64,000 bases of DNA from Candidatus Woesebacteria bacterium (GCA_020060105.1 JAGVAV010000002.1:6186-70185), one strand, 5' to 3'. Shown: positions 11,219 to 63,096, counted from the stretch's first letter. Notes: generated by a model not told the origin, from the sequence alone. Numbers and translations are program-made.

Positions 11219-12304
11219 TTATCTATTAATCACAAACATCATGTTACCTAAGTTTTTCACCTTACCTTTTATTTCCATCAAAGTCAAGGTCGAATTCACA
11301 ACATCCGTAGGTAATTTTGTCTCTTTAATCACCTGGTCTATCGTCTTAGCCCCGGAGGAAAGAATCTTTAAAATCGAGTCTTCCTCTGCGTTTTCTGGAA
11401 GAATAGAATCAGATTTGGAGTCTTTTACCGTTATATTCATTTCATCTATTATATCTTCTACACTAGTAACCAACTTCGCTCCGGCTTTAATCAAATCCGC
11501 TGGTCCTTTGGAAAGTTTGCTAAAGATAGGGCCTGGAACAGCGAAAACTTCCCGATTTTGATCAAGAGCTAAATTGGCTGTAATCAAAGAGCCGCTATCT
11601 TCCCCAGCTTCTGTTACCACCACCCCTCTTGATAAACCCGAAATGATCCTATTTCTCGCTGGAAAATTGCCAGCTAGTGGTTCAAAATTCGGAGGGAACT
11701 CTGATAGCAACACGCCGCCTCTAGCTATCTCTTCCGCTAGGGAATGGTTTTCTGGGGGATATATCCTGTTTAAACCACTGCCAAGGACGGCCAAGGTTCT
11801 TCCTCCACATTCGAGAGCTGTCTGGTGGGCTAACGAATCTACACCTCTTGCCAAGCCAGAAACTATAGTAAATCCATATCCCACTAACTCTTTTACTAAA
11901 TATCTGGTTACCTCTTTCCCATACACCGTGGCTTTCCTTGTGCCAACAACGGCTATTGCCAGATCATCTTCCGGTTTAATCTCACCTTTCAAAAAAATTA
12001 CAGGTGGAGGATCATAGATTTCCAGTAGTAAGCGGGGATAATCTTTATCCACGACTGTTATCACTTTAATACCCTGACTGATAATGCCTTCCAAATATCT
12101 ATCTGGTTCAATACTATTTCTATAGCGATCAAAGACCCAAGAAGCTTTTTCCCCAATCACTTTTGCCACATCCTCAATTCTAGCTTTCCAAACTAACTCC
12201 GGCGACTTGAAATAATCAATCAGTTCCTTAAAGCGAACTGGCCCAATTTGAGGCGCCCCGCTGAGGGCCACCCAAAAAGCAAGACTGTTAAAATTATTTG
12301 ACAT
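11219..12304 (-). CDS. dprA: DNA-processing protein DprA (Smf)
   Basis: Rossmann-like DprA core: GTRKATVYG...GLARGVDSLAHQ... Confidence 0.88.
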   Translation of the reverse strand: MSNNFNSLAFWVALSGAPQIGPVRFKELIDYFKSPELVWKARIEDVAKVIGEKASWVFDRYRNSIEPDRYLEGIISQGIKVITVVDKDYPRLLLEIYDPPPVIFLKGEIKPEDDLAIAVVGTRKATVYGKEVTRYLVKELVGYGFTIVSGLARGVDSLAHQTALECGGRTLAVLGSGLNRIYPPENHSLAEEIARGGVLLSEFPPNFEPLAGNFPARNRIISGLSRGVVVTEAGEDSGSLITANLALDQNREVFAVPGPIFSKLSKGPADLIKAGAKLVTSVEDIIDEMNITVKDSKSDSILPENAEEDSILKILSSGAKTIDQVIKETKLPTDVVNSTLTLMEIKGKVKNLGNMMFVINR

Positions 12305-14228: not shown

Positions 14229-14229
14229 A

Positions 14230-14574
14230 TTATCGCCAAGCCATCAAAATCGTTAATTCTATCACCTTACTAGAAATAAACAAGCAAGCGATTAACAAAA
14301 TTAAAATAAAGGCTCTTCTCTTATTTAACCCAGTTTTGTTAAAAAAATAAAACACACTAAAGGCCACTAAATAACCCAGCAAGGATGTCCCTAGGGGAAA
14401 ATTAGTTAACAAATCCGTTATAAGACTTCCCACCACACCGAAATACACAGCGTCTTTAACTTGGCTTAGACTAAACCAGTATAATGAAATAATCACTATT
14501 AAATTAAGCGGAGCAATTGAAAGCTGTATCAGAGTAACGACAAACGCTGTGGTAAAAATCAACAAGTATTTCAT
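14230..14574 (-). CDS. mreD: Rod shape-determining protein MreD (small polytopic membrane protein)
   Basis: 114-aa hydrophobic protein between mreC and mrdA. Assigned by position and membrane topology only. Confidence 0.65.
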   Translation of the reverse strand: MKYLLIFTTAFVVTLIQLSIAPLNLIVIISLYWFSLSQVKDAVYFGVVGSLITDLLTNFPLGTSLLGYLVAFSVFYFFNKTGLNKRRAFILILLIACLFISSKVIELTILMAWR

Positions 14575-15365
14575 TTGAAAATAAAAACGTGGCTAAGGCG
14601 ACTATAATTAACCAAGGGTCTGACTACGGCTTCTTGAAAAATAGCCTTATCATCTTTCTTAACTTTCTCCACGGTTCCAACAACCAAACCACGAGGATAA
14701 CCACCCTCACCAGAAGTGATTACACTATCGCCTTCGGTTAAAGGTTCTTCCGGAAGAACCTTAGATAAAGACATCTCAGCTTGAAAACGCCCAGTTAGAA
14801 TTCCTCTAGCCTTTTGAACAGTAGTCACAGGAACTTTAGAATTTGGATCGATTAATAGCTCTATACTAGCCGATCTCGGTGAGGTACTAATTACCTTCCC
14901 TATCAAAATATCTCTTAATATCACAAAAGAGTCTCTTCTCACCCCTTCGTTTTCCCCCTTATCTACCAATAAATACCTCTCTTGTCCTATGGGGCCAAAA
15001 CCAATTACAGACGCCAGAATCATCTCCTTACTCGCGTTTTCTAGATTACCTATCCCTAATTGTTCTTTCAAAACTTTGTTTTCTTCAGTCAGCAACTTCA
15101 ACCGAGTAACTTCTGATACCAAATCCACATTCTCTTTCTTTAATTTAGAATTTTCCTCATGTAAGTTAACCGCGTCAAAAACAACTCCAAGCTTTGATGT
15201 TACCCCTTGGCTAAAACTGTAAAAACCATACTGCACTGGAACTAATACCGCTTGTAGAGGGTTCTTAATAAAACCTAAACCGTTCTGCCGGTCAAGAAAA
15301 ACTAGCAGAAGGACAAACAAAAAACCGACAACAAAATAGAACCTCCTCACCGTGCCCCTCCGCAA
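14571..15365 (-). CDS. mreC: Rod shape-determining protein MreC
   Basis: N-terminal TM, coiled coil (ENSKLKKENVDLVSEVTRLKLL), and a beta-rich C-terminal domain. Confidence 0.85.
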   Translation of the reverse strand: MRRGTVRRFYFVVGFLFVLLLVFLDRQNGLGFIKNPLQAVLVPVQYGFYSFSQGVTSKLGVVFDAVNLHEENSKLKKENVDLVSEVTRLKLLTEENKVLKEQLGIGNLENASKEMILASVIGFGPIGQERYLLVDKGENEGVRRDSFVILRDILIGKVISTSPRSASIELLIDPNSKVPVTTVQKARGILTGRFQAEMSLSKVLPEEPLTEGDSVITSGEGGYPRGLVVGTVEKVKKDDKAIFQEAVVRPLVNYSRLSHVFIFK

Positions 15366-16399
15366 ATCTTGATTCTTCTCAACAGAGATGCATTCTCCAA
15401 AACCTTACCCGCACCTCTCACAACGCAAGTTAAAGCATCCTCCGCCACTATCACAGGCATCTTGGTTTCTTTAGCCGTTAACTCTGCTACCCCTGGTAAA
15501 AGAGACCCACCGCCGGCCAAAGTAATCCCATTTTCCATAATATCCGAAACCAACTCGGGAGGAGTCTCTTCCAGAGTATCTTTTATTGCTTCGATAACTA
15601 CTCTCACTGTGTTAGACAAAGCCTCTCTTATTTCACCACTCGTCACTACAACGCTTGAAGGCAAACCAGAAGCCAAGTCTCGGCCTCGAATAGCAATTTT
15701 ACTTTCTTTATCCACTGGATAGGCAGAACCAATGCTTATTTTTATTTCTTCCGCTGTCCTCTCCCCCAGCAAAAGATTGTACCTGCTTCTCGCATAATTA
15801 ATAATGTCTTGATCCATTTCATCTCCCGCAACCCTAACCGAACGATTAATAACTATTCCCCCTAATGAGATTACGGCAATCTCTGTCGTCCCCCCACCAA
15901 TATCGACAATCATACTTCCTTTAGCCTCTTCAGTTGGAAGTCCGGCGCCAATGGCCGCGGCCATTGGCTCCTCAACTAAATACGCCTCTCGAGCCCCCGC
16001 TCTTATGGTGGCATCTTGTACTGCCCTTCTTTCAACTTCGGTTACTCCTGAGGGAATCCCAACCACTACTCTTGGACGAGGAATTTTAGGAATAATTGAA
16101 CGGCTCTCGTGGATTTTACTAACAAAATATTTAAGTAAAGATTCTGTTGCGTCAAAATCAGAAATTACCCCGTCTCTTAAAGGCCTTATCACGCTAATCA
16201 TGCTCGGTGTTTTCCCAATCATCCTTTTAGCCTCAGCACCCACCGCTAAAACCTGTCTCGTTTTTTTGTGTTGGGCAATTATCGTCGGTTCGCGTATTAG
16301 AATCCCCTTCCCTTTGACTAAAACTAAAGTATTCGCTGTTCCGAGATCAATCCCAACATCGTGAGACAAAGAAGATAAGAAACTATTAATAAAAAACAT
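15347..16399 (-). CDS. mreB: Rod shape-determining actin homolog MreB
   Basis: [11 protein letters not shown] phosphate-1 motif and the actin/HSP70 fold motifs throughout. Confidence 0.92.
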   Translation of the reverse strand: MFFINSFLSSLSHDVGIDLGTANTLVLVKGKGILIREPTIIAQHKKTRQVLAVGAEAKRMIGKTPSMISVIRPLRDGVISDFDATESLLKYFVSKIHESRSIIPKIPRPRVVVGIPSGVTEVERRAVQDATIRAGAREAYLVEEPMAAAIGAGLPTEEAKGSMIVDIGGGTTEIAVISLGGIVINRSVRVAGDEMDQDIINYARSRYNLLLGERTAEEIKISIGSAYPVDKESKIAIRGRDLASGLPSSVVVTSGEIREALSNTVRVVIEAIKDTLEETPPELVSDIMENGITLAGGGSLLPGVAELTAKETKMPVIVAEDALTCVVRGAGKVLENASLLRRIKICGGAR

Positions 16400-16478: not shown

Positions 16479-18722
16479 ATGACAAGTTTAGTTTTTTTGT
16501 GTAACAAAATTATTGAATACAGTTTCTACGCCCTTTTCTTCCTCGTTCCTTTAATTTTTTCTCATCTAACCTATGAATTATTTGAATTCAATAAGATGCT
16601 TCTTGTCTACTTCATTTCTATCATCATAGCCGGCGCGTGGTTAATTAAGTCACTCGAAACGGAAACATTTTATTTAAAAAGAACTTTTCTAGATATTCCA
16701 ATTCTTTTGTTTCTAATAGCTAACATTCTTTCTACTATATTTTCGATTGACCCTTACACCAGCCTTTGGGGTTACTACACTCGGTTCAACGGAGGTCTAA
16801 TTTCAACAATTTTCTATATTTTCCTCTATTACGCCTTTGTAAGTAACATTAAACCTAGTAAAGTATTAAAGATGATCTATGTTTCCGTGATCTCAGCGGC
16901 TGTAGTGTCGTTTTGGGGAGCACTAGCCTTTTTTGGGCGCGACCCGTCTTGTCTGTTAATTAACGGCGATTTTGGAACAAGTTGCTGGAATAAGCTTTTC
17001 AATCCCACGGTAAGAGCCTTTTCAACTATTGGACAATTCAATTGGTTAGCCGCATTTATCGCAATGATTCTACCTATTAGCGTATCTTTGATGATAATTT
17101 CTCAACCATTTTACAAAAAGATCCGTTATCTATCAGTTAGTTCTCTTATGTACCTTACCTTCACCCTGGCATACTCGAGAGGAGCAACGATCGGCCTAGC
17201 GGCAGGATTGCTTGTCTTTTTCTTACTTGCCGGCCTAGATAAAGTAAGAAAATATTGGAAAGGATTAATTGCTTCAGGAACAGTTGGATCAGCAGCAAGT
17301 TATTTTATCTTTACCTCTGTTTTCCTTAAGAACTCTTTTGATTGGGTATGGTTATCTGCTTTACTGATTATTGGGGCAGTGGGTGGTTTGTTTATCTTTG
17401 TTTTCTTCAACGCTTTATCCGTCCTAAAAGGAAATCGAAAGTGGCTTATCGTTTTGGCAATCGCCTTCCTTATCATCAATGTCCTTGCCAGCAACGCCTT
17501 CTCTCATAGACCCGTAAAAGTCAGTAATGTGACAACCGAAAGTGTTGGAACTGGTGGGGAGACAGACTCTGGACAAAATAGATTGGTTGTTTGGAAAGGA
17601 GCCTTAGACATTGCTAAAAACTTCCCTATCCTGGGCTCAGGGGTAGAGACTTTCGCCTACTCTTATTACCAATTTAGACCAGAAGAACATAACTTAGCTG
17701 GATCAGAATGGGATGTTTTATTTAATAAAGCCCACAACGAATACTTGAACTACCTTTCCACAACGGGGATCGTTGGGGTAATTACGTATTTAGCCCTTAT
17801 AATAATGTTTTATATCGCCACAATAAAACTATTCCTTAAAGAAAGTTCTGGAAGTAACAAGTTGATAATCGCAGCTTTTTTATCGGGCTATACTAGCTAC
17901 TTAGTTCAGAACACATTTAGCTTCTCTGTTGTACCAATCGCTTTGTTGTTTTATCTTTTTCCTGCCTTAATCATTAACCTGAGTGGAAATAAAAAAGACC
18001 AGAATAACCCACAACTTCAAATAAACATTAAACTTTTACCGGGTTCAATCCGCGCTCTTTATAGAAGAAGGGTGTTTCAGGTTACTATAGCTGTTATTAT
18101 TGTGTACGCCCTCCTTAAGATTGTTAACATTTGGCAAGCAGACGTTTCTTATGCAAAAGGTGTTCGACAGGGAGATTACCTCTCATTAGAAAGAGCGGTA
18201 AATTTAAACCCAGCAGAGCCAACTTATCGAATCGGATTAAGTTATCTACTGGCAGTAATGGCCAACAAAGAAGAAGACCCCCAGAAAAAGAAAGAGTTAG
18301 TTTTACGGACTGTAAATGAGGGAGAAAACGCCGTAAAAGCCAGCCCTCATAACGTAAGTCTCTGGAGAAATTTGGTAAGAACTTATTACGAGCTCTCCCA
18401 AATCGACAGCAGCTTTCTAAATAACGCTCTTGAAGCAGCGCTAAAAGCCGTCTCCCTGGCCCCAACTGATGCCAGAACACACCTCACCTTAGGCTTAGCT
18501 TATAAAGAAGCGAATTTATTAAACGAAGCTGCCCAAACTTTTCAAAAGACTATTGAGCTTAAGGCCGATTTCGCGGAAGCTTATTACCATCTTGCCTTAA
18601 CCTATCAACAACAAGAAGAAAAAGAAAAGGCAGTTAAGGTTCTGGAAAAATTTCTTAATTTATTCCCAGGTCAAAAAGAAAGCGTAAACAAGTTAATAGA
18701 AGAAATAAAAGGATCTAAATAA
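16479..18722 (+). CDS. O-antigen ligase-like (Wzy_C) polytopic membrane protein with a C-terminal TPR repeat domain
   Basis: More than 10 TM helices with a periplasmic loop carrying the KAHNEYLNYL Wzy_C motif. The C-terminal roughly 200 aa are TPR-like (YYHLALTYQQQEE...). Confidence 0.75.
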   Translation: MTSLVFLCNKIIEYSFYALFFLVPLIFSHLTYELFEFNKMLLVYFISIIIAGAWLIKSLETETFYLKRTFLDIPILLFLIANILSTIFSIDPYTSLWGYYTRFNGGLISTIFYIFLYYAFVSNIKPSKVLKMIYVSVISAAVVSFWGALAFFGRDPSCLLINGDFGTSCWNKLFNPTVRAFSTIGQFNWLAAFIAMILPISVSLMIISQPFYKKIRYLSVSSLMYLTFTLAYSRGATIGLAAGLLVFFLLAGLDKVRKYWKGLIASGTVGSAASYFIFTSVFLKNSFDWVWLSALLIIGAVGGLFIFVFFNALSVLKGNRKWLIVLAIAFLIINVLASNAFSHRPVKVSNVTTESVGTGGETDSGQNRLVVWKGALDIAKNFPILGSGVETFAYSYYQFRPEEHNLAGSEWDVLFNKAHNEYLNYLSTTGIVGVITYLALIIMFYIATIKLFLKESSGSNKLIIAAFLSGYTSYLVQNTFSFSVVPIALLFYLFPALIINLSGNKKDQNNPQLQINIKLLPGSIRALYRRRVFQVTIAVIIVYALLKIVNIWQADVSYAKGVRQGDYLSLERAVNLNPAEPTYRIGLSYLLAVMANKEEDPQKKKELVLRTVNEGENAVKASPHNVSLWRNLVRTYYELSQIDSSFLNNALEAALKAVSLAPTDARTHLTLGLAYKEANLLNEAAQTFQKTIELKADFAEAYYHLALTYQQQEEKEKAVKVLEKFLNLFPGQKESVNKLIEEIKGSK

Positions 18723-25862: not shown

Positions 25863-25879
25863 ACTAGATATAATGACAA

Positions 25880-26034
25880 CTTAATTGAATATAACCAAAG
25901 ACAGTAGGTGCTTTTGTAATTGCTTAAGCTTAATATTTTCCTACCGAGGTTTTATCCAACGCTTGCAACATGTGAGTACCTCGGGTCTTCCCGAGGTTTT
26001 TCATTTAAATGGCCGTCTTAGGAGGTAACAAAAC
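25880..26034 (+). promoter_or_regulatory. rplJ (L10) leader: structured 5' UTR with an attenuator-like hairpin, the likely L10(L12)4 autoregulatory site
   Basis: A 170-nt gap between rplA and rplJ. Hairpins TACCGAGG...CCTCGGGT and CTCGGG-TCTT-CCCGAG followed by TTTTTC. AGGAGG Shine-Dalgarno. Confidence 0.5.
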
Positions 26035-26987: not shown

Positions 26988-27060
26988 CTTCTAATATCTC
27001 AAAATACGTCAATACATAACACGACCGTAATAACAGTATGCGTTTTGACGAACCGCTTAA

Positions 27061-27093
27061 CGAAAACCCCAAGTGGGGTTTTCGTTTTTATTC
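27061..27093 (+). terminator. Rho-independent terminator after rplL
   Basis: CGAAAACCCC-AAGT-GGGGTTTTCG followed by TTTTTATT. Confidence 0.8.
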
Positions 27094-27168
27094 TTGAACT
27101 ATTGACAAGTATGATATGTTATGATAGCGTAAATCATATAGAGAGTGACTGCCTGTTTAGGAGGGCTT

Positions 27169-27366
27169 ATGGCAATCGGTGAAGAACTCCCAGAGTTAAT
27201 GACTGTCAAAGAAGTAGCATCATTTTTAAGAGTTTCCCCTCTCACAATCAAACGTTGGGGTAAACGAGGAAAATTACCAGCCATTAGAATTAATGCAAGA
27301 GGTGACAGACGTTACAAGAAAGAAGCGGTACTCTGGCTTCTAGGGGAAATTAAAAAAGAAACGTAA
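27169..27366 (+). CDS. Small excisionase/MerR-type HTH DNA-binding protein (HTH_17 family)
   Basis: LMTVKEVASFLRVSPLTIKRWGKRGKLPAIRI is an excisionase-family HTH. AGGAGG Shine-Dalgarno before the ATG at 27169. Confidence 0.65.
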   Translation: MAIGEELPELMTVKEVASFLRVSPLTIKRWGKRGKLPAIRINARGDRRYKKEAVLWLLGEIKKET

Positions 27367-27477
27367 CCGGTAAAGGTAAAACACTTCAAAATGTTTTGTT
27401 TAAAATTACCCCGATTATATAGTTGCTTAGCCTCAAAAAATCTAGCAGTTGTATCAAATGATTGCTAAAAGTTTCGC

Positions 27478-28545
27478 TTATTCCCATATTTCCGTAATGG
27501 ACAGATAGGCCAGTAAATAGCAAATAATTGATTCTGCGCCTTGATTTAAATTTACCCCCTCAGAAGTAAGACCGTCAAAACAGCCCCCTGTCACTTCATC
27601 GTGTAAGGGTATTTCTTTTAGGTTATTTCCATGAAACCAAGAAAACCAAAAAATAGCTTTCTCCTTAAAAATTTTATCCTTGGTGATCTTATAGGCAATA
27701 GAGCTTGCTAACACTAAATAAGCAGGGTCTATGGCTTGCTGGTCATACAAAGCTCTGCTCTTTCCTTTACAGTACCAGCCATTTTGACCGACTGGAGAAG
27801 GCTTTCCGTTCACAGTGCAAACCTCGAATAAAAAGTCCAAACTTTCAGTCGCCACCTTCAAATACTCTTCGTCTTTAGTTGCCAAATAAGAAAGAAGTAG
27901 GGCGTAGGGAAAAACCGCGTTTCCGTAAGTAACTCCTTTTTCAAACCAACGCCACTTGCTGAAGCTGTTTTTCTTAAATAAGGATATCAAATCATTACTT
28001 AAACTAATCAATGACTTTCTAAACTGTTCATTTTGAGGTTCCTTTTGAGACAAAAAGGCTAATCCTAGTAAGGTATATGCTTTAGCTCTAGGGTATGTTA
28101 AATACCTAATGTTTGGTAAAACCTCCGCGGCTAAGTAACTTGACTGGAGAGTGATATCTCTTCTAACCCCGGCAAAGGCCGCAAAACCGAGAGACCAAAA
28201 AGCCCTCCCAAAACAGTCCTGAGATCTGGCTTCATCTAAAAAACGATGGTCAAAGCTGAGAAAATTAAAAAAATCGCCTTCCTCGGTCTTGGCGTGAGAA
28301 ATAAAGGACAGATAAATTAAAGCTAGATCTAAAGTCGTCTGGTTTTTAAACAGTAAATTTAGCCAAACACTCACGACAAATGCGCGAGAATTATCGTCTA
28401 AAGTATAACCAAGTTTACGGTCTGGTACCGCGTATTTTGCATGTTGGATTATTCCGGTGGGAGTTGTAAGTCGCTCCAAGTATCGAATATCGGGGGGTAA
28501 CTTAAAGTTAATGTTTTTGAGATAGTCTTGATATTTAGCTTCCAT
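27478..28545 (-). CDS. Hypothetical protein co-transcribed with a GT4 glycosyltransferase. Possibly a glycosidase-like alpha/alpha-toroid protein, but the family is not recognised.
   Basis: The 355-aa ORF overlaps the upstream GT4 gene by 11 nt. Motifs GYTLDDNSRAF and NQGAES are suggestive only. Confidence 0.5.
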   Translation of the reverse strand: MEAKYQDYLKNINFKLPPDIRYLERLTTPTGIIQHAKYAVPDRKLGYTLDDNSRAFVVSVWLNLLFKNQTTLDLALIYLSFISHAKTEEGDFFNFLSFDHRFLDEARSQDCFGRAFWSLGFAAFAGVRRDITLQSSYLAAEVLPNIRYLTYPRAKAYTLLGLAFLSQKEPQNEQFRKSLISLSNDLISLFKKNSFSKWRWFEKGVTYGNAVFPYALLLSYLATKDEEYLKVATESLDFLFEVCTVNGKPSPVGQNGWYCKGKSRALYDQQAIDPAYLVLASSIAYKITKDKIFKEKAIFWFSWFHGNNLKEIPLHDEVTGGCFDGLTSEGVNLNQGAESIICYLLAYLSITEIWE

Positions 28546-29725
28546 TTTCTTTTGCTACCAAACAAAACAAATCAAGGTGCTTCAAGGCCACGTTAGACCA
28601 AGTCATGTGCCGACCATAACCGTAGGCTTTCCTTTCCATATTTTCTTTAACCGCCAACTCCTCCAAAAGGTTCCTCACAGCCTCTGAAACCGCACCAGAA
28701 TCCCTAAACGGAACTAAGTAACCTCGTCCGTTAGCCAAAGCCTCTTTAGCGTAAACATAGGGAGTGGAAACGCAAGTTTTCCCTGCCCCTATCGCGTAAG
28801 CGAGAGCCCCACTAGTAATTTGTTGAGGATCTAAGTAAGGGGTAATATAAATATCTGTGGCTCTTAAATAAGAAATTAACTCTCCAAGTGGTAGATAACG
28901 ATTAATAAATCTAACGTTTTCTTCAACCTTCAATTCCTTTACCAATTTTTCCAGGTAAAGCCGATACCTCTCACCTTCACTCTTTTGAACTACAGGATGA
29001 GTTTTACCTATAACTAAATACAACACCTTTGGGTGCTTGGCTAGAATTTCTGGCATCGCCTTAATAACGTACTCTACTCCTTTGTTTGAAGATAGTAAAT
29101 TTATTGTTGCTAAAATTGAATAATCCTGCAGATTAAGTGCTACTTTATGAGGCAACGACGGGCCTAAAGGTATATCCGGGACGCCGTGATAAATAGTCAC
29201 AATCTTCCTTTTACTTACTCCGTATATTTTATTTAATCTTTCCGCGGCACAGTGAACCATGACAATAATTGCTTTAGACATACGTGCAACCCTCTCCACA
29301 ACCGCCACCTGTTGAGGATCAGGCTTATCTAAGACAGTATGAAACGTGGTTACAACCGGTCGACGAATTTTTTCCAAAAAAGAAACGATATGTTCACCGT
29401 ACTGCCCGCCGAATAAACCAAATTCGTGCTGAATGCTAACTAACTCTGCTCCCGACTGATTAATATAGTTAGCGGCATCAGAATAACTCTGATTATCGTT
29501 TTGGGCTATTCGAAACTTCACTTCCCAAGGGTAGTCATACTCTGCGTTCAAGTCATTAACAGCCATAATTTCTGCCAAAGCATCTGGGTTCAATTCGTTT
29601 ATTGCCGTAGTCAAATCCTTTGTATAAGTAGCTATCCCACACTGCCTAGGAATGTAACTTGACACATAAATTACTTTTACCTTGCGTTCTTTCTTGTCAA
29701 GCTTTTTTCGATAATATTTAACCAT
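28535..29725 (-). CDS. GT4-family glycosyltransferase
   Basis: Glycos_transf_1 C-domain. The start is taken at the ATG (MVKYYRKK...) positioned right after a strong promoter, which makes the mRNA leaderless or nearly so. Confidence 0.8.
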   Translation of the reverse strand: MVKYYRKKLDKKERKVKVIYVSSYIPRQCGIATYTKDLTTAINELNPDALAEIMAVNDLNAEYDYPWEVKFRIAQNDNQSYSDAANYINQSGAELVSIQHEFGLFGGQYGEHIVSFLEKIRRPVVTTFHTVLDKPDPQQVAVVERVARMSKAIIVMVHCAAERLNKIYGVSKRKIVTIYHGVPDIPLGPSLPHKVALNLQDYSILATINLLSSNKGVEYVIKAMPEILAKHPKVLYLVIGKTHPVVQKSEGERYRLYLEKLVKELKVEENVRFINRYLPLGELISYLRATDIYITPYLDPQQITSGALAYAIGAGKTCVSTPYVYAKEALANGRGYLVPFRDSGAVSEAVRNLLEELAVKENMERKAYGYGRHMTWSNVALKHLDLFCLVAKENGS

Positions 29726-29732
29726 GATATGT

Positions 29733-29761
29733 ATAATACTACTTTGTAGCAAATCTTTCAA
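29733..29761 (-). promoter_or_regulatory. Sigma70-like promoter for the GT4-hypothetical operon: TTGAAA, 17 nt, TATTAT. The TSS falls at or next to the start codon.
   Basis: Minus-strand hexamers with a 17-nt spacer. The -10 element ends 7 nt before the ATG. Confidence 0.5.
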
Positions 29762-29854
29762 GATAAGTCCTGTCTAGTCGTGGGTCCGAAAAAATGTACT
29801 AAACCCCCCGTTAAACCTCTTGACAGGGTCAAAAATTTATGAGATTATAAATAG

Positions 29855-30045
29855 GTAAGGTATTGGCTGAAAGGTCGATAGCTTGAGGAACCCAACGGGG
29901 AGTACGTTAACAATTTGCCCCACTCTCCAAGTCCATAAACCTCTACTTGCTAGAGTTAGTTGGGCTTCCTTTAAGAAACTTTGAAATAAAAACAACCGTA
30001 ACATATTTGAACCCCTAGTCCGAGGACTAGGGGTTCTTTAATTAT
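29855..30045 (+). ncRNA. Candidate small non-coding RNA of about 190 nt, with its own promoter and intrinsic terminator, lying between two minus-strand GT4 genes
   Basis: Plus-strand promoter TTGACA(29820), 17 nt, GATTAT. No ATG anywhere in the transcribed stretch. Perfect 13-bp hairpin GAACCCCTAGTCC-GA-GGACTAGGGGTTC followed by TTTAATTAT at 30009..30045. Confidence 0.35.
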
Positions 30046-30097
30046 CGAGACTAAGACAAGGTTACTTTGTGTTGATTGTCTGCGTGTCAGCAGTCTT

Positions 30098-31240
30098 TTA
30101 TCTTTTCGCGTAAACCTTCTCAAAAACACTTAGCGTTTCTGCCGCACACTTATCCCAAGAGAATGTTTTCACTCGTTTAAGTCCCTTTGACCTCAAAACG
30201 TTTCTCAGGTTATTGTCCGTTACAACTCGATAAAGAGCGGCGGCAATATCGTCAACGTCGTAGGGGTTCACTAAAATCACCGCCTCCCCTCCAACTTCCG
30301 GGAGGCTGGAAACATTCGAAGTAACCACAGGACACTCACACGCCATCGCTTCCAACACAGGCAACCCGAAACCCTCAAATAAGCTAGGTAGAACAAGCGC
30401 TTCTGCTGATGAATATAGTATTGGTAGATCTTCGTCCGTCACGTAATTAACAAACTTAACCTTATCCGCCAAGTTGAGCTTCTCAGGAAGTTTATATATC
30501 TCCTCGTTTAACCACCCTGACTTACCAACTAGTACCAAATCAATACCAGCTTTCTTTCCCGCCAACAAAGAGTAAGCCTTAATTAAACGTACTAAATTTT
30601 TCCGCGGTTGGATTGTTCCCACAAAAAGGAGGTACTTCTCACCTAATCCGTACTTTAACTTAACCTCCTTTTTCTTACCTGGATCTTTAACCGGTTTAAA
30701 CAAGCTATCATCAAAACCCTCGTGTATCACCGTCACCCTCTCCGGATCGATAGAAAACCGACTCAGTAAATTCTTCTTTGTGAACTCTGAAACAGCAATT
30801 ATATGCGTAGCAAAACGAGTCGCGTAACCAGTCGACCAGTTTAAATAAAATTTACTGGTAAAATTACGCCTATCCTCGTTACCTAAATCATGAATAGTAA
30901 CAATCGTCTTTAACGCGGGCTTACGAATCACTGGTAACGCATGTGCGGGGACAAATAGAACGTCTGGAGGATAAACTAAACATTCCGCCGCCAACCCTAA
31001 TTGTGTCCATAATCTTGGCAACTTAATTAATCGAGTGCTAACATTGCTCAGCTTGTTAGAAACTTCACTCACAACCTGTAACTTCTCTAGGAAGGGGTCG
31101 TCACAATAAGGGCTTAAATAGAGAATGAAATGATTCCTTTTGTCTATCTTAATCAAAGACTTGACTAAATTGTAACTGTAGTTTTCTGTACCCGTCCGTT
31201 CTCGAGTAAACGCACGGCTTGCATCAATCCCAACACGCAT
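30098..31240 (-). CDS. GT4-family glycosyltransferase
   Basis: Classic GT-B fold and EX7E region (LPSLFEGFGLPVLEAMACECPVV). Confidence 0.85.
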   Translation of the reverse strand: MRVGIDASRAFTRERTGTENYSYNLVKSLIKIDKRNHFILYLSPYCDDPFLEKLQVVSEVSNKLSNVSTRLIKLPRLWTQLGLAAECLVYPPDVLFVPAHALPVIRKPALKTIVTIHDLGNEDRRNFTSKFYLNWSTGYATRFATHIIAVSEFTKKNLLSRFSIDPERVTVIHEGFDDSLFKPVKDPGKKKEVKLKYGLGEKYLLFVGTIQPRKNLVRLIKAYSLLAGKKAGIDLVLVGKSGWLNEEIYKLPEKLNLADKVKFVNYVTDEDLPILYSSAEALVLPSLFEGFGLPVLEAMACECPVVTSNVSSLPEVGGEAVILVNPYDVDDIAAALYRVVTDNNLRNVLRSKGLKRVKTFSWDKCAAETLSVFEKVYAKR

Positions 31241-31255
31241 ATAAGCATAGATTAA

Positions 31256-32260
31256 CTATTTCTTACTAATACTTCTTTTATACAAACTGATATTTTCTAG
31301 AGCAACCCCTGTACCATAAACGACGCACAAAAGCGGGTTCTCAGCGACATAACAAGATACACCGGTAACATTAGTAAATAATTTATCCAAATTTCTCAAC
31401 AGCGAAGTTCCTCCGCTCATCACAATACCTTTATCAATTATGTCTGAGGCTAACTCTGGAGGAGTTTGTTCTAATACTCCCCTCACGGCATCAACAATAG
31501 CGTTCAAGGGGGTACTAATTGCCTGAGTTACTTCTGTTGAGGATAACTCAATCACTCGAGGTAAGCCGGCGATACTGTCTCTCCCGCGAACATCCATTTT
31601 TACTTCTTCTGGTAGCAGCACGGCACTGCCAATGTTAATTTTGATTTCTTCGGCCATTCTTTCCCCAATGATTAAGTTATACTTTCTCCTGACGTAAGCC
31701 GTAATGGCCTCATCAATTTTATTACCGCCAACGCGAACTGAATTATGAACCACTACCCCACCTAAAGAAATGACAGCCGTTTCCGTAGAACCACCACCGA
31801 TATCAACAATCATGTTACCTGAAGGAGCGGCGATAGGAATCCCCGCCCCGATCGCTGCTGCTAAAGGTTCGTCTATTAGGTAAGCCGTTTTGGCTCCTGC
31901 CGAAAGAGTGGCGTCAAGAACAGCTCGGCGCTCCACTGAAGTAACACCAGCGGGCACGCAAATCATCACCTCAGGTTTAAACAGTCGTGAATGGCCACAC
32001 ACTTTATCAATAAAATAATGCAGCATCGCTTCCGTCACGACGTAGTCCGCAATCACTCCGTCCCTCATAGGACGAGATGCAGTTATCCCTTCGGGAGTCC
32101 TCCCTAACATTTCCTTCGCTTCATTGCCAACTGCCATCACCTTTCCATCCTCAGTATTTATTGCCACAACAGTCGGCTCATTAAGCACAACACCTTTGTT
32201 TTCTAGAAAAACAAGCGAATTAGCTGTTCCTAAATCAATGCCCAAACGTTTACCAAACAT
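31256..32260 (-). CDS. Second MreB-family actin homolog, a paralog of the mreBCD-linked copy
   Basis: [11 protein letters not shown] and all actin-fold motifs. About 50% identical to the MreB at 15347..16399. Confidence 0.88.
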
Positions 32261-32358
32261 AACTTAATTATAACAATCATTAAAACACTCGTAAATTGTT
32301 TTTTCACTAAAAACATCAGTAAGAATCAAAGTTTCACAAACCCAACCACCAGTGTCGC

Positions 32359-33498
32359 TTGCTTAAAACTGAAATTTCTGATAAAATGGCTAACTATATG
32401 GACCAAAAGTTCCTCTTTTTCGTAATCGTATTTTCAATTATCAGCATCACTGCAACAATCCTAATATTTTTCGCCAAAGGCTATAAAATTGATTTAGTCA
32501 ATAAGACTTTAGAACAAACGGGAATGATTGCCGTCATCTCAAATCCTCAGGGAGCCTCAATATACTTAAACAACCATCTTATCAGTGCCACAAACTACAC
32601 AATTTCTAACCTTAGTCCGGGTGAATACGTAGTGAAAGTTGTGAAAGAAGGCTATGCAAGTTGGGAAAAAAGAGTTGAAGTAAAACCGCAAGTGGTGACC
32701 CCTTTAGAAATCACTCTCTTCCCTGCAGTTCCTGAATTAAGACCCCTAACTTACACTGGAGTAGGTGACCCAAAGATTTCCTTTGATGGAACTAAAGTTG
32801 CCTACAAAGTCAAAAACGGGGAAAAGTCTGGGCTCTGGGTACTCGATCTGGCGGATAAACCATTGATTTTTTCTCGTGATCCTAAGCAAATTGCTAGGGA
32901 TACTAAGACTCTAGCTTTTTCGGAAAGTACTTTTGAATGGGCGCCTGATAACAAAACGATTCTTTCTACTCTACAAGAAGAAGGGAAAAAAGAGGAAGCG
33001 TTTACTCGAAACTACTTACTTAATATTGATCAATTAAATAACGACCGACTCTATGATGTAACGCCAACAATCGAGAGCACGAAAAGGAATTGGGAAGAAG
33101 ATAGAGAATTAAAAAACAAAGATCGATTAAGCCGCGTTAACGAAGAGGGAATCAGTCTAGCAGAAGGTTGCGACATAAAATGGTCCCCAGACGAAACTAA
33201 ATTTATTGCTGTAAATGAGGAAAAGAGAACTATATTTGACACTAAAAATAATAAGTCTTATTCTTTACCTGCAGCTAATAACTACACCTGGTTTCCGGAT
33301 AGTAAGCATATTATCCTAGTTAAACAAGATGTTATTAGCATTATCGAATCAGACGGAACCAATGAAATGGTAATATACAACGGCAATTTCGACCAACAAG
33401 TCGTTTTTCCCTGGCCAAATGGGAGTAAGCTAATTATTGCGGCCAACTTTAATACTACGGCAAGCCTAAACCTCTACACAATCAACCTAAAACCTTAA
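32359..33498 (+). CDS. Membrane-anchored PEGA-domain protein with a C-terminal TolB/WD40-like beta-propeller region
   Basis: N-terminal TM. PEGA-like segment (ISNPQGASIYLNN...GEYVVKVVKEGY). Repeated beta-strand motifs (GTKVAYKVKNG...DGTNEMV). Confidence 0.6.
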   Translation: MLKTEISDKMANYMDQKFLFFVIVFSIISITATILIFFAKGYKIDLVNKTLEQTGMIAVISNPQGASIYLNNHLISATNYTISNLSPGEYVVKVVKEGYASWEKRVEVKPQVVTPLEITLFPAVPELRPLTYTGVGDPKISFDGTKVAYKVKNGEKSGLWVLDLADKPLIFSRDPKQIARDTKTLAFSESTFEWAPDNKTILSTLQEEGKKEEAFTRNYLLNIDQLNNDRLYDVTPTIESTKRNWEEDRELKNKDRLSRVNEEGISLAEGCDIKWSPDETKFIAVNEEKRTIFDTKNNKSYSLPAANNYTWFPDSKHIILVKQDVISIIESDGTNEMVIYNGNFDQQVVFPWPNGSKLIIAANFNTTASLNLYTINLKP

Positions 33499-34184
33499 TT
33501 AGCCAGTTTAGCTGTTACTATCAACCTCCTAAAATTAGTTCCAGGCGGGTCACAAGTCTGCAAGGTTAATATTGGCTCCGAAGAAGGTTCTGTTAGGTAC
33601 TTCGTATCCGTAGCTTCAACTATCTTTTTCTCGGTAACAAGATAATCATACCGCTGCCCTTGGTAAAAGGTCACTACTCGGTCCCCCTTTTCCAATTTGT
33701 TAAGTAACGTAAACAAAGTCGCATAAGGGCCCATTTGCCAAAAATTTAGGGTGGAGTGCGCAAAAATAAAAACATTATTATTTTGATTTTCTTTAGAACC
33801 TGGAAGGGCTGTGCCTTTAGCGTGAGCGGCCCCACTTCTTAGCGCTTGCATGTACTCAGTGTAGTTAGCACTGTCCACATTCTTCACCACCGGAGCGTTA
33901 ACGTTAATCTTCTCAACGACCAAACCAAAATCTCTAGAAACAGGAACTATTGAAATAGGCCTCGGTTGAGAAAGTAAGTTCCCAAAACCTCTACCCACAT
34001 TTGTTTCATCTCCACTCTCTTCAGAAATAACATACTGCTGGCCTCTTAACTTATCCCAGTAGAAACGAAACTCCATTCCCACCAACGGCCAAAAGGTAAG
34101 AAAAGTAAATATAATCCCAAGCATTATTAAAGTATTTGCAATAGTTCTAACTAATACAAAGGTTATGTAGCGTCTTCTCGCCAT
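33495..34184 (-). CDS. Sortase-family transpeptidase
   Basis: N-terminal TM, catalytic His (IFAHST), TLxTC Cys motif (LTLQTCDP), and a conserved Arg (FRRLIV). Confidence 0.78.
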   Translation of the reverse strand: MARRRYITFVLVRTIANTLIMLGIIFTFLTFWPLVGMEFRFYWDKLRGQQYVISEESGDETNVGRGFGNLLSQPRPISIVPVSRDFGLVVEKINVNAPVVKNVDSANYTEYMQALRSGAAHAKGTALPGSKENQNNNVFIFAHSTLNFWQMGPYATLFTLLNKLEKGDRVVTFYQGQRYDYLVTEKKIVEATDTKYLTEPSSEPILTLQTCDPPGTNFRRLIVTAKLAN

Positions 34185-34194
34185 AAAGCCTCCG

Positions 34195-34273
34195 TGGCGC
34201 CCCTGGAGGGAATCGAACCCCCGACAAACATCCCTTAGGACGGGACTGCTCTAATCCGCTGAGCTACAGGGGC
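34195..34273 (-). tRNA. tRNA-Arg (anticodon CCT), CCA encoded
   Basis: Acceptor GCCCCTG/CAGGGGC, anticodon loop GTCCTAA, T-loop GGTTCGATTCC. The variable-loop alignment is slightly ambiguous. Confidence 0.7.
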
Positions 34274-34404
34274 GAACATAGTAAGTTTTTCGACAAGACC
34301 TGTTCACAAAAGCGATTAAGGATTATACTAAAATTTAGTTAAAATTGCAAAGGACAGCTTTAAATGCTAAAATTAACTTTTATTGACTATGGTAACTTGT
34401 AATC

Positions 34405-34479
34405 CGGGGACTAGCTCAGGGGTAGAGCGCTCGGTTCGGGACCGAGAGGCCCGCGGTTCAAATCCGCGGTCCCCGACCA
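34405..34479 (+). tRNA. tRNA-Pro (anticodon CGG), CCA encoded
   Basis: Acceptor CGGGGAC/GTCCCCG, anticodon stem-loop CTCGG-TTCGGGA-CCGAG. Confidence 0.85.
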
Positions 34480-50984: not shown

Positions 50985-51117
50985 TTTTCACCTCCTTTCA
51001 GGCTCAGTTTAATAAAACACTGGTCGCTTTAGAGTCAAGCAAAATGGTTAAATAAACAAATTATGCAATAAGTTATTTACTTAACTATTTTAGTAACAAG
51101 TTGACAAGAAAGGAGGG

Positions 51118-52745: not shown

Positions 52746-52825
52746 ACTTTAACCCAAGTCAGACTCAAACTGCCTTAGGTTGAAGTTTTTTCTTCTACAC
52801 CTTCATCCATGAATACCGACTAATT

Positions 52826-59464: not shown

Positions 59465-63010
<3,546 letters not shown>

Positions 63011-63096
63011 GCTATATTTGGCCTTCACCTTCTATTCAGTTTCTAGAGTGTTAATGAAACTAAATAAGATATTAAATTTTCAAAGAGCGAAAACTT

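Follow-up and report, generated by a model that had tools for sequence, protein, structure and literature searches.

What stands between the end of the rplJL unit and a tRNA-Arg/tRNA-Pro pair, where rpoBC might be expected? In the 64-kb stretch of DNA analysed here, referred to as the window, this interval holds a cluster of about 7 kb (Table 1), which the initial annotation read as an inserted, accessory block of acquired origin. Comparing it with related loci revealed that the cluster is an inherited gene neighbourhood of ultra-small bacteria (CPR/Microgenomates), not a foreign insertion. With a probability of about 0.6, we consider it a vertically inherited cell-envelope neighbourhood in which an MreB paralog, MreB2, would organise a wall-glycopolymer module, a function that we infer from the gene neighbourhood.

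Table 1. Positions of the features discussed, in window coordinates
Feature	Position	Strand	Remarks
Intrinsic terminator of the rplJL unit	27059–27093	+	12-bp stem, T-run
65-aa HTH_17/MerR-type ('excisionase-fold', BldC-like) DNA-binding protein	27169–27366	+	AGGAGG Shine-Dalgarno
355-aa cytoplasmic (alpha/alpha)6-barrel protein, second cassette gene	27478–28545	-	Profile search, model
GT4a, predicted GT4 glycosyltransferase, first cassette gene	28535–29725	-	396 aa from ATG; Pfam
GT4a promoter, TTGAAA-17-TATTAT	29733–29761	-	7 nt before ATG, leaderless
Small RNA promoter, TTGACA-17-GATTAT preceded by TG	29820–29848	+	-35/-10 boxes kept in L084 and L087
Candidate structured small RNA, ~190 nt	29855–30045	+	Own promoter, terminator, covariation
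GT4b, predicted GT4 glycosyltransferase, 380 aa	30098–31240	-	Follows mreB2 in one predicted operon, 15 nt apart
MreB2, predicted intact MreB-family actin-like ATPase	31256–32260	-	PF06723, 463 bits
mreB2 promoter, TTTACG-17-(TG)TATAAT	32267–32295	-	6 nt before ATG, leaderless; kept in L084
Promoter-like site of the PEGA gene, TTGCTT-17-TAAAAT	32359–32387	+	10 nt before ATG; kept in L084
366-aa type-II membrane protein: TM, PEGA beta-sandwich, TolB/Lp49-like beta-propeller with helical insert	32398–33498	+	PF08308, model
Sortase, N-terminal TM, TLQTC active-site motif	33495–34184	-	Overlaps convergent PEGA gene by 4 nt
tRNA-Arg(CCT)	34195–34273	-	10 nt upstream of sortase start; position kept in relatives
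tRNA-Pro(CGG)	34405–34479	+	Pairing with tRNA-Arg kept in relatives
Elongasome operon mreB1-mreC-mreD-PBP2-rodA, comparator outside the cluster	11219–16399	-	Canonical
Likely sortase substrate, DUF11-type secreted protein ending LPKAG, hydrophobic stretch, RRFLG	49839–50987	-	Outside the cluster

Gene order and inheritance of the locus

ORF, Pfam and NCBIfam analyses place every gene named in the initial annotation where it had been put: the HTH protein, the 355-aa hypothetical, two GT4 enzymes, MreB2, the PEGA protein, the sortase and both tRNAs. The PEGA gene is divergent from mreB2 and the sortase gene converges on it, as described. The start codons of GT4a, the PEGA gene and the HTH gene, however, lie downstream of the first in-frame start, and the gene list was incomplete, since an RNA gene at 29855–30045 (+) had been overlooked. 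The terminator after rplL is present (hairpin 27059–27086 and a T-run), rpoB and rpoC are absent from the ORF map of the window, and neither the region nor the window as a whole has an integrase ORF. We also notice a promoter-like site at 34322–34351 (-), by tRNA-Arg(CCT).

The initial annotation had named a synteny comparison with relatives as the test of the insertion reading. Of the related Microgenomates (CPR) loci, all 12 have this HTH gene next after rplL and the cluster behind it, in the order rplL-HTH-...-GT4b-mreB2-PEGA-sortase-tRNA-Arg/Pro-...-NDK-M16-ArgRS. The flanking order NDK-M16-metallophosphatase-ArgRS-ComEC-ComEA is kept as well, and so is the tRNA-Arg/Pro pair in eight of the nine relatives with this flank there, the ninth having tRNA-Arg alone. 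GC content is flat, with values inside the cluster (0.38–0.43) equal to those of most of the flanking sequence. A search for att-like direct repeats returned just imperfect repeats of 14–22 nt, at chance level and none of them at the borders. Only GT4a and its (alpha/alpha)6 partner vary in presence among relatives, the rest of the block being conserved. Together with the conservation of the HTH protein, these findings contradict the insertion reading.

The HTH protein always sits at the cluster edge, is 72–95% identical across relatives, and is more conserved than the adjacent ribosomal proteins. It passes the TIGR01764 excisionase-family domain (34.5 bits, cut-off 28.8), a match that reflects a fold-level domain and is no proof of an excisionase role. 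Its best NCBIfam match is BldC (E = 7e-12), and at 45 bits it falls below the cut-off of 77 for membership of that family (NF033787). Streptomyces BldC is a 68-aa MerR-like HTH protein whose multimers assemble head to tail on direct repeats (PMC5859096). Size and fold class are the same in BldC, in excisionase/RDF-type HTH proteins and in the cluster protein, which, unlike the excisionase/RDF type, has no partner integrase. Its extreme conservation and fixed chromosomal position speak for a housekeeping role, as a regulator or nucleoid protein, and against a recombination directionality factor.

An acquired or mobile island displacing rpoBC, bounded by the excisionase-type HTH gene and the tRNA genes, is an extremely improbable account of the 7 kb. 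The TIGR01764 score, the tRNA genes flanking one side and the lack of rpoBC in the window would all fit such an island. Yet a dozen divergent relatives keep the same order, including the rplL-HTH junction and the tRNA pair, and the HTH protein far exceeds the 30–60% identity of neighbouring proteins. Flat GC and the lack of both an integrase and boundary repeats also speak against it. PADLOC, run on the cluster proteins, gave a generic HTH match (mad1, 42 bits) and nothing for the other six, with no defence system of the GT4-conflict or MADS kind.

The mreB2-glycosyltransferase core

MreB2 scores well above the family cut-offs (PF06723, cut-off 27; NF010539, 482 bits against 293; TIGR00904, 465 against 366). 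Aligning it with MreB1 revealed intact nucleotide-binding motifs (DLGTAN, DEPxAAAIG, DIGGGxT, SGG) and 50% identity to this mreCD-linked protein (15347–16399), in agreement with the earlier estimate. Assignment to MreBH was rejected (NF010540, 402 bits, cut-off 515). In a neighbour-joining tree without support values, the PEGA-, WecG- and GT4-linked MreBs form one clade of 58 leaves that includes none linked to mreC; MreB1 falls among the canonical MreBs. By genetic linkage to mreC, mreD, PBP2 or rodA, MreB2 does not behave as an elongasome MreB: MreC or PBP2 lies within 4 kb of mreB2 in 0 of 37 non-redundant loci, whereas the MreB1 of the window is so linked. Judged by sequence, MreB2 is a CPR-wide and CPR-specific paralog clade of its own, uncoupled from mreCD/PBP2/rodA.

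GT4b passes both glycosyltransferase domains (Glycos_transf_1, 132.9 bits; Glyco_transf_4, 57.7 bits), and neither it nor GT4a reaches any NCBIfam equivalog. We counted genes within 3.5 kb of mreB2 in the 37 non-redundant MreB2 loci that extend at least 2.5 kb downstream: WecG is encoded in 32, a GT4b-like enzyme in 20, and either of them in 35. The genes are tightly packed, with mreB2 and GT4b 5–15 nt apart and the GT4b and WecG reading frames overlapping by 4–20 nt. Relatives show at least two architectures, one divergent and one fully co-directional. The latter is exemplified by L097, whose compact array sortase-PEGA-mreB2-GT4b-wecG-PGI has gaps of 38, 58, 8, -4 and 15 nt. L169 keeps PEGA|mreB2-GT4b-wecG-GT4a-(a/a)6-GH94|HTH, and the ~2 kb past its HTH gene contain no rplL. 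The mreB2-GT4 adjacency recurs in the Moranbacteria-like L013 and two further Patescibacteria loci, L016 and L020. Rearrangements leave the mreB2-glycosyltransferase, PEGA-mreB2 and PEGA-sortase adjacencies intact, and the conserved core of the cluster is mreB2-GT4-wecG/tagA.

TagA, TarA and WecG are GT26 enzymes of the WecB/TagA/CpsF family, which act in linkage-unit synthesis for wall teichoic acid or ECA. The gene beside mreB2 and GT4b in relatives is similar in size (245–295 aa) and a clear PF03808 member (E = 6.5e-41). The window itself, in contrast, has no such gene anywhere in its 64 kb (best tblastn E = 0.36), and 133 bp (29978–30111) take the place of a 797-bp stretch with wecG in the closest relative, L084. 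The proposed pathway therefore lacks its central enzyme here, at least within 64 kb. No other Tag gene (TagO, TagB/F, TagGH) was seen in the cluster, nor TagO/WecA, TagB/F, TagGH or an LCP ligase among the 20 of ~55 window proteins scanned with Pfam. TagA is a peripheral membrane enzyme and carries out the first committed step in making wall teichoic acid (PMC6493773, PMC8784642).

Several MreB-family proteins per cell, as found here, are familiar from Bacillus subtilis (MreB, Mbl, MreBH), where the idea arose that actin-like filaments organise the synthesis and attachment of secondary wall polymers besides peptidoglycan. Compared with these paralogs, MreB2 belongs to a distinct clade never found beside mreCD. 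To our knowledge, Bacillus has no operon that joins mreB and tagA. The wall-glycopolymer ligases of the LCP family (TagTUV) were found as MreB interaction partners in B. subtilis (PMC7831098). The Bacillus link to wall-polymer enzymes is at the protein level, whereas here mreB2 shares an operon with GT4/GT26 genes.

Proposed extracytoplasmic partners and module

The remote-homology searches and structure prediction proposed in the initial annotation for the 355-aa and PEGA proteins both gave results, an (alpha/alpha)6 fold for the former and a TM-PEGA-propeller architecture for the latter. The PEGA domain is clear (57.7 bits, cut-off 20.8), and the model is confident (pLDDT 89.8). Foldseek matches the propeller to TolB, Lp49 and S9 proteins (E = 1e-8 to 1e-6), with a global TM-score of 0.22–0.28. 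PD40 Pfam matches occur in many family members, not in the window protein. The C-terminal domain of the PEGA protein would be a propeller of the type known from TolB and leptospiral Lp49. In contrast to TolB, the PEGA protein has an N-terminal TM anchor, a PEGA beta-sandwich in place of the TolB N-domain, and a helical insert; CPR cells, being of monoderm type, are not known to have a Tol-Pal system. With ~2 cytoplasmic residues before the TM helix in the model, it could hardly touch MreB2 directly. In the 36 loci collected by using PEGA as bait, the neighbours include mreB2 in 18 and the sortase in 23; the choice of bait inflates a PEGA-adjacency figure of 45/54.

The sortase is well supported (PF04203, 80 bits, cut-off 26.6; TIGR01076, 62.5 bits, cut-off 39.35), with LTLQTC in its sequence. 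A sortase-dependent pilus or other appendage locus, with MreB2 as cytoplasmic motor or scaffold, takes up an idea of the initial annotation and draws on the best NCBIfam match of this enzyme, the pilus-type class C (NF033745). At 72 bits, that match is far below the cut-off of 160, and class C was rejected. The cluster has no pilin-like gene with a sorting signal, the PEGA protein lacks a C-terminal one, and the only sorting-signal protein found lies 16 kb from the sortase. A lone sortase at each locus is what one expects of a housekeeping enzyme, and we regard an appendage locus as very unlikely.

We picture the preferred wall-glycopolymer module in layers. In the core operon mreB2-GT4b(-wecG/tagA), MreB2 would be co-transcribed with glycosyltransferases of the cytoplasmic face, among them, in relatives, an enzyme of the GT26 type, which synthesises the undecaprenyl-linked linkage unit found in wall glycopolymers. 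Beside it would stand the membrane-anchored, extracytoplasmic PEGA-propeller protein and the sortase, in some relatives in one compact array with mreB2. The highly conserved BldC-like HTH protein may form a third layer at the edge, and the variable GT4a-(alpha/alpha)6 cassette and the small structured RNA gene a fourth. We speculate that MreB2 filaments on the inner membrane face position GT4b/WecG enzymes building a lipid-linked secondary wall glycan, that MreB1 in parallel positions peptidoglycan synthesis, and that the PEGA-propeller protein and sortase contribute to wall decoration at the outer face. Of the dedicated surface-glycan module first proposed, the conserved mreB2-glycosyltransferase, PEGA-mreB2 and PEGA-sortase adjacencies hold, the first of them into other CPR classes; the GT4a pair turned out to be accessory.

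Inherited synteny without functional coupling would explain the same arrangement differently. MreB2 would then be a second elongation MreB, like Mbl or MreBH of Bacillus, working with the peptidoglycan machinery of MreB1, and the other genes would be unrelated neighbours. Since NDK, the M16 peptidase and ArgRS also keep their order, much of the adjacency could indeed be inherited synteny in small, slowly rearranging genomes; the metallophosphatase and ComEC/ComEA, equally unrelated, do so over the same loci. The nucleotide-binding motifs and family scores of MreB2 are those of an ordinary MreB, no mreB2 lies next to the PEGA gene in half of the PEGA loci, and the window lacks wecG. On the other hand, mreB2 and a glycosyltransferase gene stay together in 35 of 37 loci in overlapping or abutting frames, and do so through inversions, in L169 without rplL in the fetched flank, and in the other CPR classes (L013, L016, L020) where the remaining synteny is gone. 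MreB2 is also never next to mreC or PBP2. We therefore rate uncoupled synteny as unlikely, though it deserves serious weight. A stronger form of the wall-glycopolymer module is doubtful at present: an ancient second MreB system of CPR bacteria that works apart from the peptidoglycan elongasome, in which MreB2 filaments might organise TagA and GT4 enzymes into a machine making a secondary wall glycopolymer, with the PEGA-propeller protein and sortase as outer partners and the BldC-like HTH protein and a new class of ~190-nt structured RNA as regulators. If true, glycopolymer synthesis would here be actin-guided and encoded in an operon, an arrangement that we do not know from any bacterium.

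A variable cassette and a candidate small RNA

GT4a passes both of its Pfam domains (Glycos_transf_1, 59.9 bits; Glyco_transf_4, 32.6 bits), and the near-consensus leaderless promoter noted earlier stands, its geometry being kept in L084. The 355-aa ORF overlaps the GT4a stop by 11 nt. Its closest solved relative by sequence profile is Yersinia pestis YPO2471 (PDB 7tem, E = 1.3e-23), followed by AGE-type sugar epimerases/isomerases and GH76, the latter matched by profile-to-PDB only (E = 4.5e-5 over ~95 residues). No Pfam family reaches its cut-off, and GH88 was rejected (17.9 bits, cut-off 26.6). The model is a confident (alpha/alpha)6 fold (pLDDT 94.8; TM 0.7–0.8 to the YPO2471 and AGE/GH76 folds), common to YPO2471 and the superfamily of cellobiose 2-epimerase, mannose isomerase and alpha-1,6-mannanase. 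In contrast to these proteins, it is cytoplasmic, with no signal peptide, and always follows a GT4 gene. YPO2471 is uncharacterised, and we know of no activity for any close relative of the 355-aa protein.

The pair of a GT4 gene followed by an (alpha/alpha)6 gene occurs in unrelated contexts in Dictyoglomus, Bathyarchaeota and other phyla. GT4a is 44–47% identical to its counterparts in the two named groups, and both cassette partners show 41–47% identity to those of the pairs elsewhere. At the same site, the cassette is found only in L084, L109 and L169, and 16 of the 18 non-redundant relatives whose sequence spans HTH to mreB2 lack it. The pair alone behaves as an accessory cassette of laterally patchy distribution. 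Slightly better than even, in our estimate, is the chance that only these two genes (27478–29725) were acquired laterally, between HTH and wecG in one sub-lineage, with wecG later deleted in the genome of the window. This narrower proposal is compatible with the inherited wall-glycopolymer module and counted as part of it. It fits the scarcity of the pair at this site, its presence in other phyla, and the 133 bp left where L084 carries wecG. The GC content equal to that of the genome and the lack of mobility genes or repeats count against it, and ancestral presence with repeated loss is the alternative. The genome of the window probably differs from its relatives in glycan chemistry, since it has the GT4a cassette and no wecG at the locus.

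The overlooked gene between GT4a and GT4b is a candidate unannotated structured RNA with its own predicted promoter and terminator and without an Rfam family match; searching Rfam returned nothing at the gathering score (best E 0.05–0.5, unrelated families). Its 5' domain of ~118 nt has the core UCYRUAAACCU-hairpin-AGUUAGYYRGA and is followed by an A-rich linker, and the terminator consists of a hairpin (30009–30036) and a T-run. The RNA is found in six loci, the window and five relatives. It is convergent with GT4b in the window. In the five relatives, wecG lies on this side, and the orientation is convergent in four and co-directional in L087/L088.

Gene content and inheritance of the cluster

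ORF, tRNA, Pfam and NCBIfam analyses recovered all the genes that the initial annotation had named between rplL and the tRNA pair. The MreB of the canonical elongasome operon (MreB1) shares 50% identity with the second MreB (MreB2), in agreement with the earlier estimate. Based on the closest relative and on promoter geometry, three starts were revised, namely those of the HTH protein (27169, 65 aa), the glycosyltransferase GT4a (29725, 396 aa) and the PEGA protein (32398, 366 aa). The GT4a stop overlaps the start of the 355-aa ORF by 11 nt, and for the latter Pfam gives GH88 below threshold and nothing else. For every protein, the closest homologues come from Microgenomates-group Patescibacteria (Woykebacteria, Daviesbacteria, Amesbacteria). 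Neither rpoB/rpoC nor an integrase gene is found among the ORFs of the 64-kb window. The membrane protein encoded divergently from mreB1 at 16479-18722(+) has 747 aa, is of the Wzy_C (O-antigen-ligase-like) type and carries TPR repeats at its C-terminus, which makes a second adjacency of MreB and polysaccharide genes in the window.

Features of the cluster and related elements, with positions along the whole stretch
Feature	Position	Strand	Remarks
mreB-mreC-mreD-PBP2-rodA operon	11.2-16.4 kb		canonical
L10 leader	25877-26012		Rfam match, within the secE-nusG-rplKAJL block
rplL end	26987		last gene of the secE-nusG-rplKAJL block
Hairpin, 12 bp, with T-run	27059-27093		3' of rplL
HTH_17/MerR/'excise'-type protein	27169-27366	+	65 aa; AGGAGG Shine-Dalgarno
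355-aa protein	27478-28545	-	partner of GT4a
GT4a	28535-29725	-
GT4a promoter			TTGAAA-17-TATTAT
RNA promoter	29820-29848	+	TTGACA-17-(TG)GATTAT
Candidate structured RNA	29855-30045	+	~190 nt; between GT4a and GT4b, own promoter and terminator
RNA terminator hairpin, then T-run	30009-30036	+	3' of the ~150-nt body
GT4b (second GT4)	30098-31240	-
MreB2	31256-32260	-	PF06723, 463 bits
mreB2 promoter			TTTACG-17-TGT-TATAAT
PEGA gene promoter			TTGCTT-17-TAAAAT
TM + PEGA protein	32398-33498	+	divergent
Sortase	33495-34184	-	convergent
tRNA-Arg(CCT), tRNA-Pro(CGG)			beyond the sortase
Candidate sortase substrate, DUF11/DUF7507-type secreted protein	49839-50987	-	C-terminal LPKAG, hydrophobic stretch, RRFLG

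For comparison, 80 genome loci were fetched with MreB2 as bait and 80 metagenome loci with a PEGA-family alignment. Two further sequences were added, L084 as the nearest relative (proteins 64-69% identical) and the 938-kb CPR contig L169 (GCA_030704665.1). All fetched loci, which are MAGs and metagenome contigs, were mapped against the window's proteins. In 12 of 12 loci containing rplL, the HTH gene lies within 3 kb downstream of it, mostly at 130-300 bp, and the cluster follows. On the other flank, the order of sortase and tRNA-Arg/tRNA-Pro, then, further on, NDK, M16 peptidase, metallophosphatase, ArgRS, ComEC and ComEA recurs. The tRNA pair adjoins the sortase or PEGA genes in eight of nine tested relatives with that flank, and the ninth (L101) has tRNA-Arg alone. 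In L169 the HTH gene is kept with the cluster, and no rplL lies in the approximately 2 kb fetched beyond it.

The initial annotation had taken the excisionase-type HTH and the flanking tRNAs as signs of an acquired insertion in place of rpoBC, and had itself named a matching gene order in relatives as evidence against this reading. It is this order that we find. Direct (att) repeats are absent from the cluster borders, GC stays at 0.38-0.43 throughout the cluster, as in most of the window, and the integrase search is negative as well. The cluster is very probably ancestral, and its being an island as a whole is highly improbable. For annotation, an 'excisionase' HTH beside tRNAs is insufficient for calling an island. 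A defence system, an idea taken from Pfam GT4-conflict and MADS1 matches, yields only a generic HTH match in PADLOC, and we give it almost no credence.

The BldC-like HTH protein retains 72-95% identity where rplL shows 52-68% and the envelope proteins 30-60%, and it is better conserved than the neighboring rplL, rplK and nusG products. Its role may be that of a regulator, either global or of the cluster. In two relatives (L001, 2281-2868; L002, 8047-8634), we notice an ORF of approximately 195 aa, 54% identical between both and with no Pfam match, at differing insertion points within the cluster, as if it were mobile.

The mreB2-glycosyltransferase core and its outer partners

An MreB2-type gene is present in 57 non-redundant loci, 37 of which have at least 2.5 kb of downstream sequence. 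Within 3.5 kb of mreB2, a WecG/TagA/CpsF (GT26) gene (PF03808, E = 6.5e-41) occurs in 32 of these 37 loci, a GT4b-like gene in 20 and one or the other in 35, and MreC or PBP2 in none. The gap between mreB2 and GT4b is 15 nt in the window and 5 nt in L084, and the reading frames of GT4b and wecG share 4-20 nt in L084, L097 and L169. Two architectures are seen, one divergent, as in the window, and the other fully co-directional. In the co-directional relative L097, the order is sortase-PEGA-mreB2-GT4b-wecG-cupin-type PGI with gaps of 38, 58, 8, -4 and 15 nt, so that this array is very likely a single operon. The adjacency of mreB2 and GT4 extends to L016, L020 and the Moranbacteria-like locus L013, in which mreB1-mreC-PBP2 lies 6 kb further on.

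In a neighbour-joining tree of 121 MreBs, built without support values, every MreB linked to PEGA, WecG or GT4 genes falls into one clade of 58 leaves holding no mreC-linked member, and the window's MreB1 clusters with canonical MreBs. In a locus of uncultured Clostridia (L041, 4575-8300), outside CPR, a gene for an MreB that shares 56% identity with MreB2 is followed 3 kb further on by a WecG homologue. This locus hints that the MreB-GT26 linkage may not be CPR-specific.

The choice of bait biases some of the neighborhood statistics. In the PEGA-baited metagenome set, regarded as unbiased, 36 loci extend 1.5 kb or more to each side. The immediate neighbor of the PEGA gene is mreB2 in 18 and the sortase gene in 23 of them; both are adjacent in 12 and neither in seven. 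The AlphaFold model of the PEGA protein (32 sequences, pLDDT 89.8) consists of a TM helix (residues 3-26), a PEGA β-sandwich and an all-β domain with a helical insert. Foldseek relates the all-β domain to Lp49, TolB and S9-peptidase propellers (E = 2e-8 to 1e-6) with low global TM-scores, and Pfam PD40 matches occur in many family members. N-terminal of the TM helix the model has only about two residues, so the protein would have almost no cytoplasmic part. Lacking a C-terminal sorting signal, it is not a sortase substrate itself.

The sortase carries a TLQTC motif and passes the general sortase models and none of the class-specific cut-offs. A plausible substrate, the sole candidate found in the window, is encoded 16 kb away. 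Between tRNA-Arg(CCT) and the start of the sortase gene lie 10 nt, and a promoter-like site precedes the tRNA (region 34184-34351(-)), so the sortase gene may be co-transcribed with tRNA-Arg. This juxtaposition is kept in relatives.

TagA-type GT26 enzymes act at the cytoplasmic face of the membrane, where they form the lipid-linked linkage unit of wall glycopolymers (PMC6493773, PMC8784642). In B. subtilis, the LCP ligases responsible for attaching wall teichoic acid first came to light as partners of MreB (PMC7831098). On these grounds, we propose that MreB2 would position GT4b and WecG to make a secondary wall glycan, in a system that would run parallel to the peptidoglycan elongasome with its MreB1. 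The PEGA-propeller protein would, like the sortase, act outside the membrane. The initial annotation had suggested a surface-glycan or appendage module. The conserved linkage of mreB2, GT4/GT26, PEGA and sortase genes supports the glycan part by comparison of genomes, with the function predicted from gene neighborhood, and a pilus locus is effectively excluded as very improbable.

The main rival holds that the genes are kept together by synteny without function. It would account for the conservation of unrelated flanking genes, for the half of PEGA loci that are missing mreB2, and for the window having no wecG. Against it, reading frames abut or overlap, the linkage survives inversions and relocation and reaches other CPR classes, and linkage to mreCD is entirely absent. 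We consider synteny without function unlikely, though a serious contender, and functional coupling of the cluster genes, judged on its own, is a tentative proposal at slightly less than even odds. The explanation that combines an inherited cluster with functional coupling is preferred, with a probability of roughly 0.6.

CPR/Patescibacteria account for a large part of the diversity of bacteria and live attached to host cells, and to our knowledge their envelopes are almost unstudied. Multiple MreB paralogs, TagA, sortases, PEGA domains, TolB-like propellers and BldC-like HTH proteins are each already known separately. For a distinct MreB clade that is built into an operon together with GT4/GT26 genes, and has a PEGA-propeller protein and a sortase beside it, we could find no precedent in the searchable literature. 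The conserved mreB2-glycan operon provides a testable hypothesis for how tiny CPR cells build and pattern their surface, and would extend the concept of teichoic acid synthesis guided by MreB, which comes from Bacillus, to a genetically hard-wired form.

Variable glycan genes at the locus

The pair of GT4a and the 355-aa protein is missing from 16 of 18 non-redundant relatives spanning HTH to mreB2, and it occurs at the equivalent site only in L084, L109 and L169. The relatives examined carry wecG at the cassette position, some together with a cupin-type glucose-6-phosphate isomerase. Homologues of the 355-aa protein (393 detected) are distributed over CPR, DPANN, Bathyarchaeota, Dictyoglomus, Firmicutes, Deltaproteobacteria and Armatimonadota. 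The homologous gene lies directly 3' of a GT4 gene in every context examined (L081, L082/83, L167, L168, L169), and the partner GT4 shares 44-47% identity with GT4a in the two cases compared. One archaeal context has a mannose-1-phosphate guanylyltransferase gene upstream of the pair, and L169 a GH94 phosphorylase gene downstream.

The model of the 355-aa protein is a confident (alpha/alpha)6 barrel (pLDDT 94.8). Its sequence profile matches the uncharacterised Yersinia YPO2471 (7tem, E = 1.3e-23) and GH76 alpha-1,6-mannanases (E = 4.5e-5), and Foldseek adds AGE-type epimerases and isomerases. Assignment to GH76 through an invariant DD motif was rejected, because the GH76 profile alignment covers another part of the barrel. 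The protein has no signal peptide. We interpret the two genes as a cytoplasmic cassette that is self-contained and spread laterally, probably combining a glycosyltransferase with a sugar-modifying or sugar-trimming enzyme. A lateral origin of this cassette alone is somewhat favored, and it is compatible with inheritance of the cluster as a whole.

By DNA alignment, 133 bp of the window (29978-30111) replace 797 bp containing wecG in L084 (6183-6980). No wecG-like sequence is detected in the whole 64 kb (best tblastn E = 0.36), nor any wecG remnant in the 336-bp GT4a-GT4b spacer. The window's genome thus departs from the mreB2-wecG rule, at this locus at least. With a variable cassette and a lost wecG, strains are likely to differ in the chemistry of their surface glycans, which would bear on host or phage recognition.

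Transcription signals and a candidate structured RNA

Sigma-70-like promoters are located 6-10 nt before the ATGs of mreB2 (32260), GT4a (29725) and the PEGA gene (32398), none of which has a Shine-Dalgarno sequence. The region contains 18 promoter-like sites against 15.1 expected from shuffled sequence, which is not above expectation, so the case for these promoters lies in conservation and not in the scan. L084 keeps both hexamers and the spacing for all three. The conserved geometry supports leaderless or near-leaderless mRNAs, including the one predicted earlier for GT4a. The three genes, set against the HTH gene with its canonical AGGAGG, suggest mixed leaderless and Shine-Dalgarno-led initiation.

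The GT4a-GT4b spacer shares 73% identity with that of L084, versus 67-69% for the flanking coding DNA, and the RNA encoded there folds with z = -3.9 against shuffles. A first nhmmer pass detected the copy in L084 only, and a second pass over newly fetched loci added L087/L088. More distant copies needed a covariance model, for which three sequences of the 5' 118 nt were used. Besides the copies in L084 and L087/L088, the model finds those in L124 (E = 3e-4), L109 (E = 8e-3) and L169 (E = 1e-5), placing the RNA at the same position in six loci. All copies in relatives lie within the HTH-wecG interval beside the wecG 3' end, four of them convergent with wecG and the L087/L088 copy co-directional. 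Matches in L135/L136 were discarded, as they lie inside rplJ/rplL.

In a five-sequence alignment, which is itself fitted to the covariance model, 86.9% of paired cells are complementary versus 73.0% in shuffles (0/500), and 18 pairs are changed on both sides versus 9.7 expected (0/500). Pairing falls to 29-45% when the partners are slid. The invariant core, UCYRUAAACCU-hairpin-AGUUAGYYRGA, encloses a hairpin that co-varies as CUCU/AGAG, CUCC/GGAG, CUGU/ACAG and CUGC/GCAG. No Rfam family matches, SRP, 6S and RNase P included, and the predicted fold lacks the long rod with a central bubble that 6S should show. The RNA core resembles a stretch of the sortase gene over 15 nt (repeat D9), which is within chance. 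No description of the RNA was found in the searchable literature, and it represents a new candidate RNA family; from its position, we would guess that it regulates the cluster.

Elsewhere in the window, an ORF of 524 aa (51174-52748(-)), which combines a CarboxypepD_reg domain with a tail rich in Pro, Thr and Val, has a GC of 0.52-0.54 against a window mean of approximately 0.40, the sole compositional outlier apart from the rRNA operon. The 23S rRNA gene (59468-63011(-)) contains a group I intron (60498-60735; Rfam, 58 bits), and its length of 3544 nt, where the model has 2925 positions, suggests that it holds more than one insertion.
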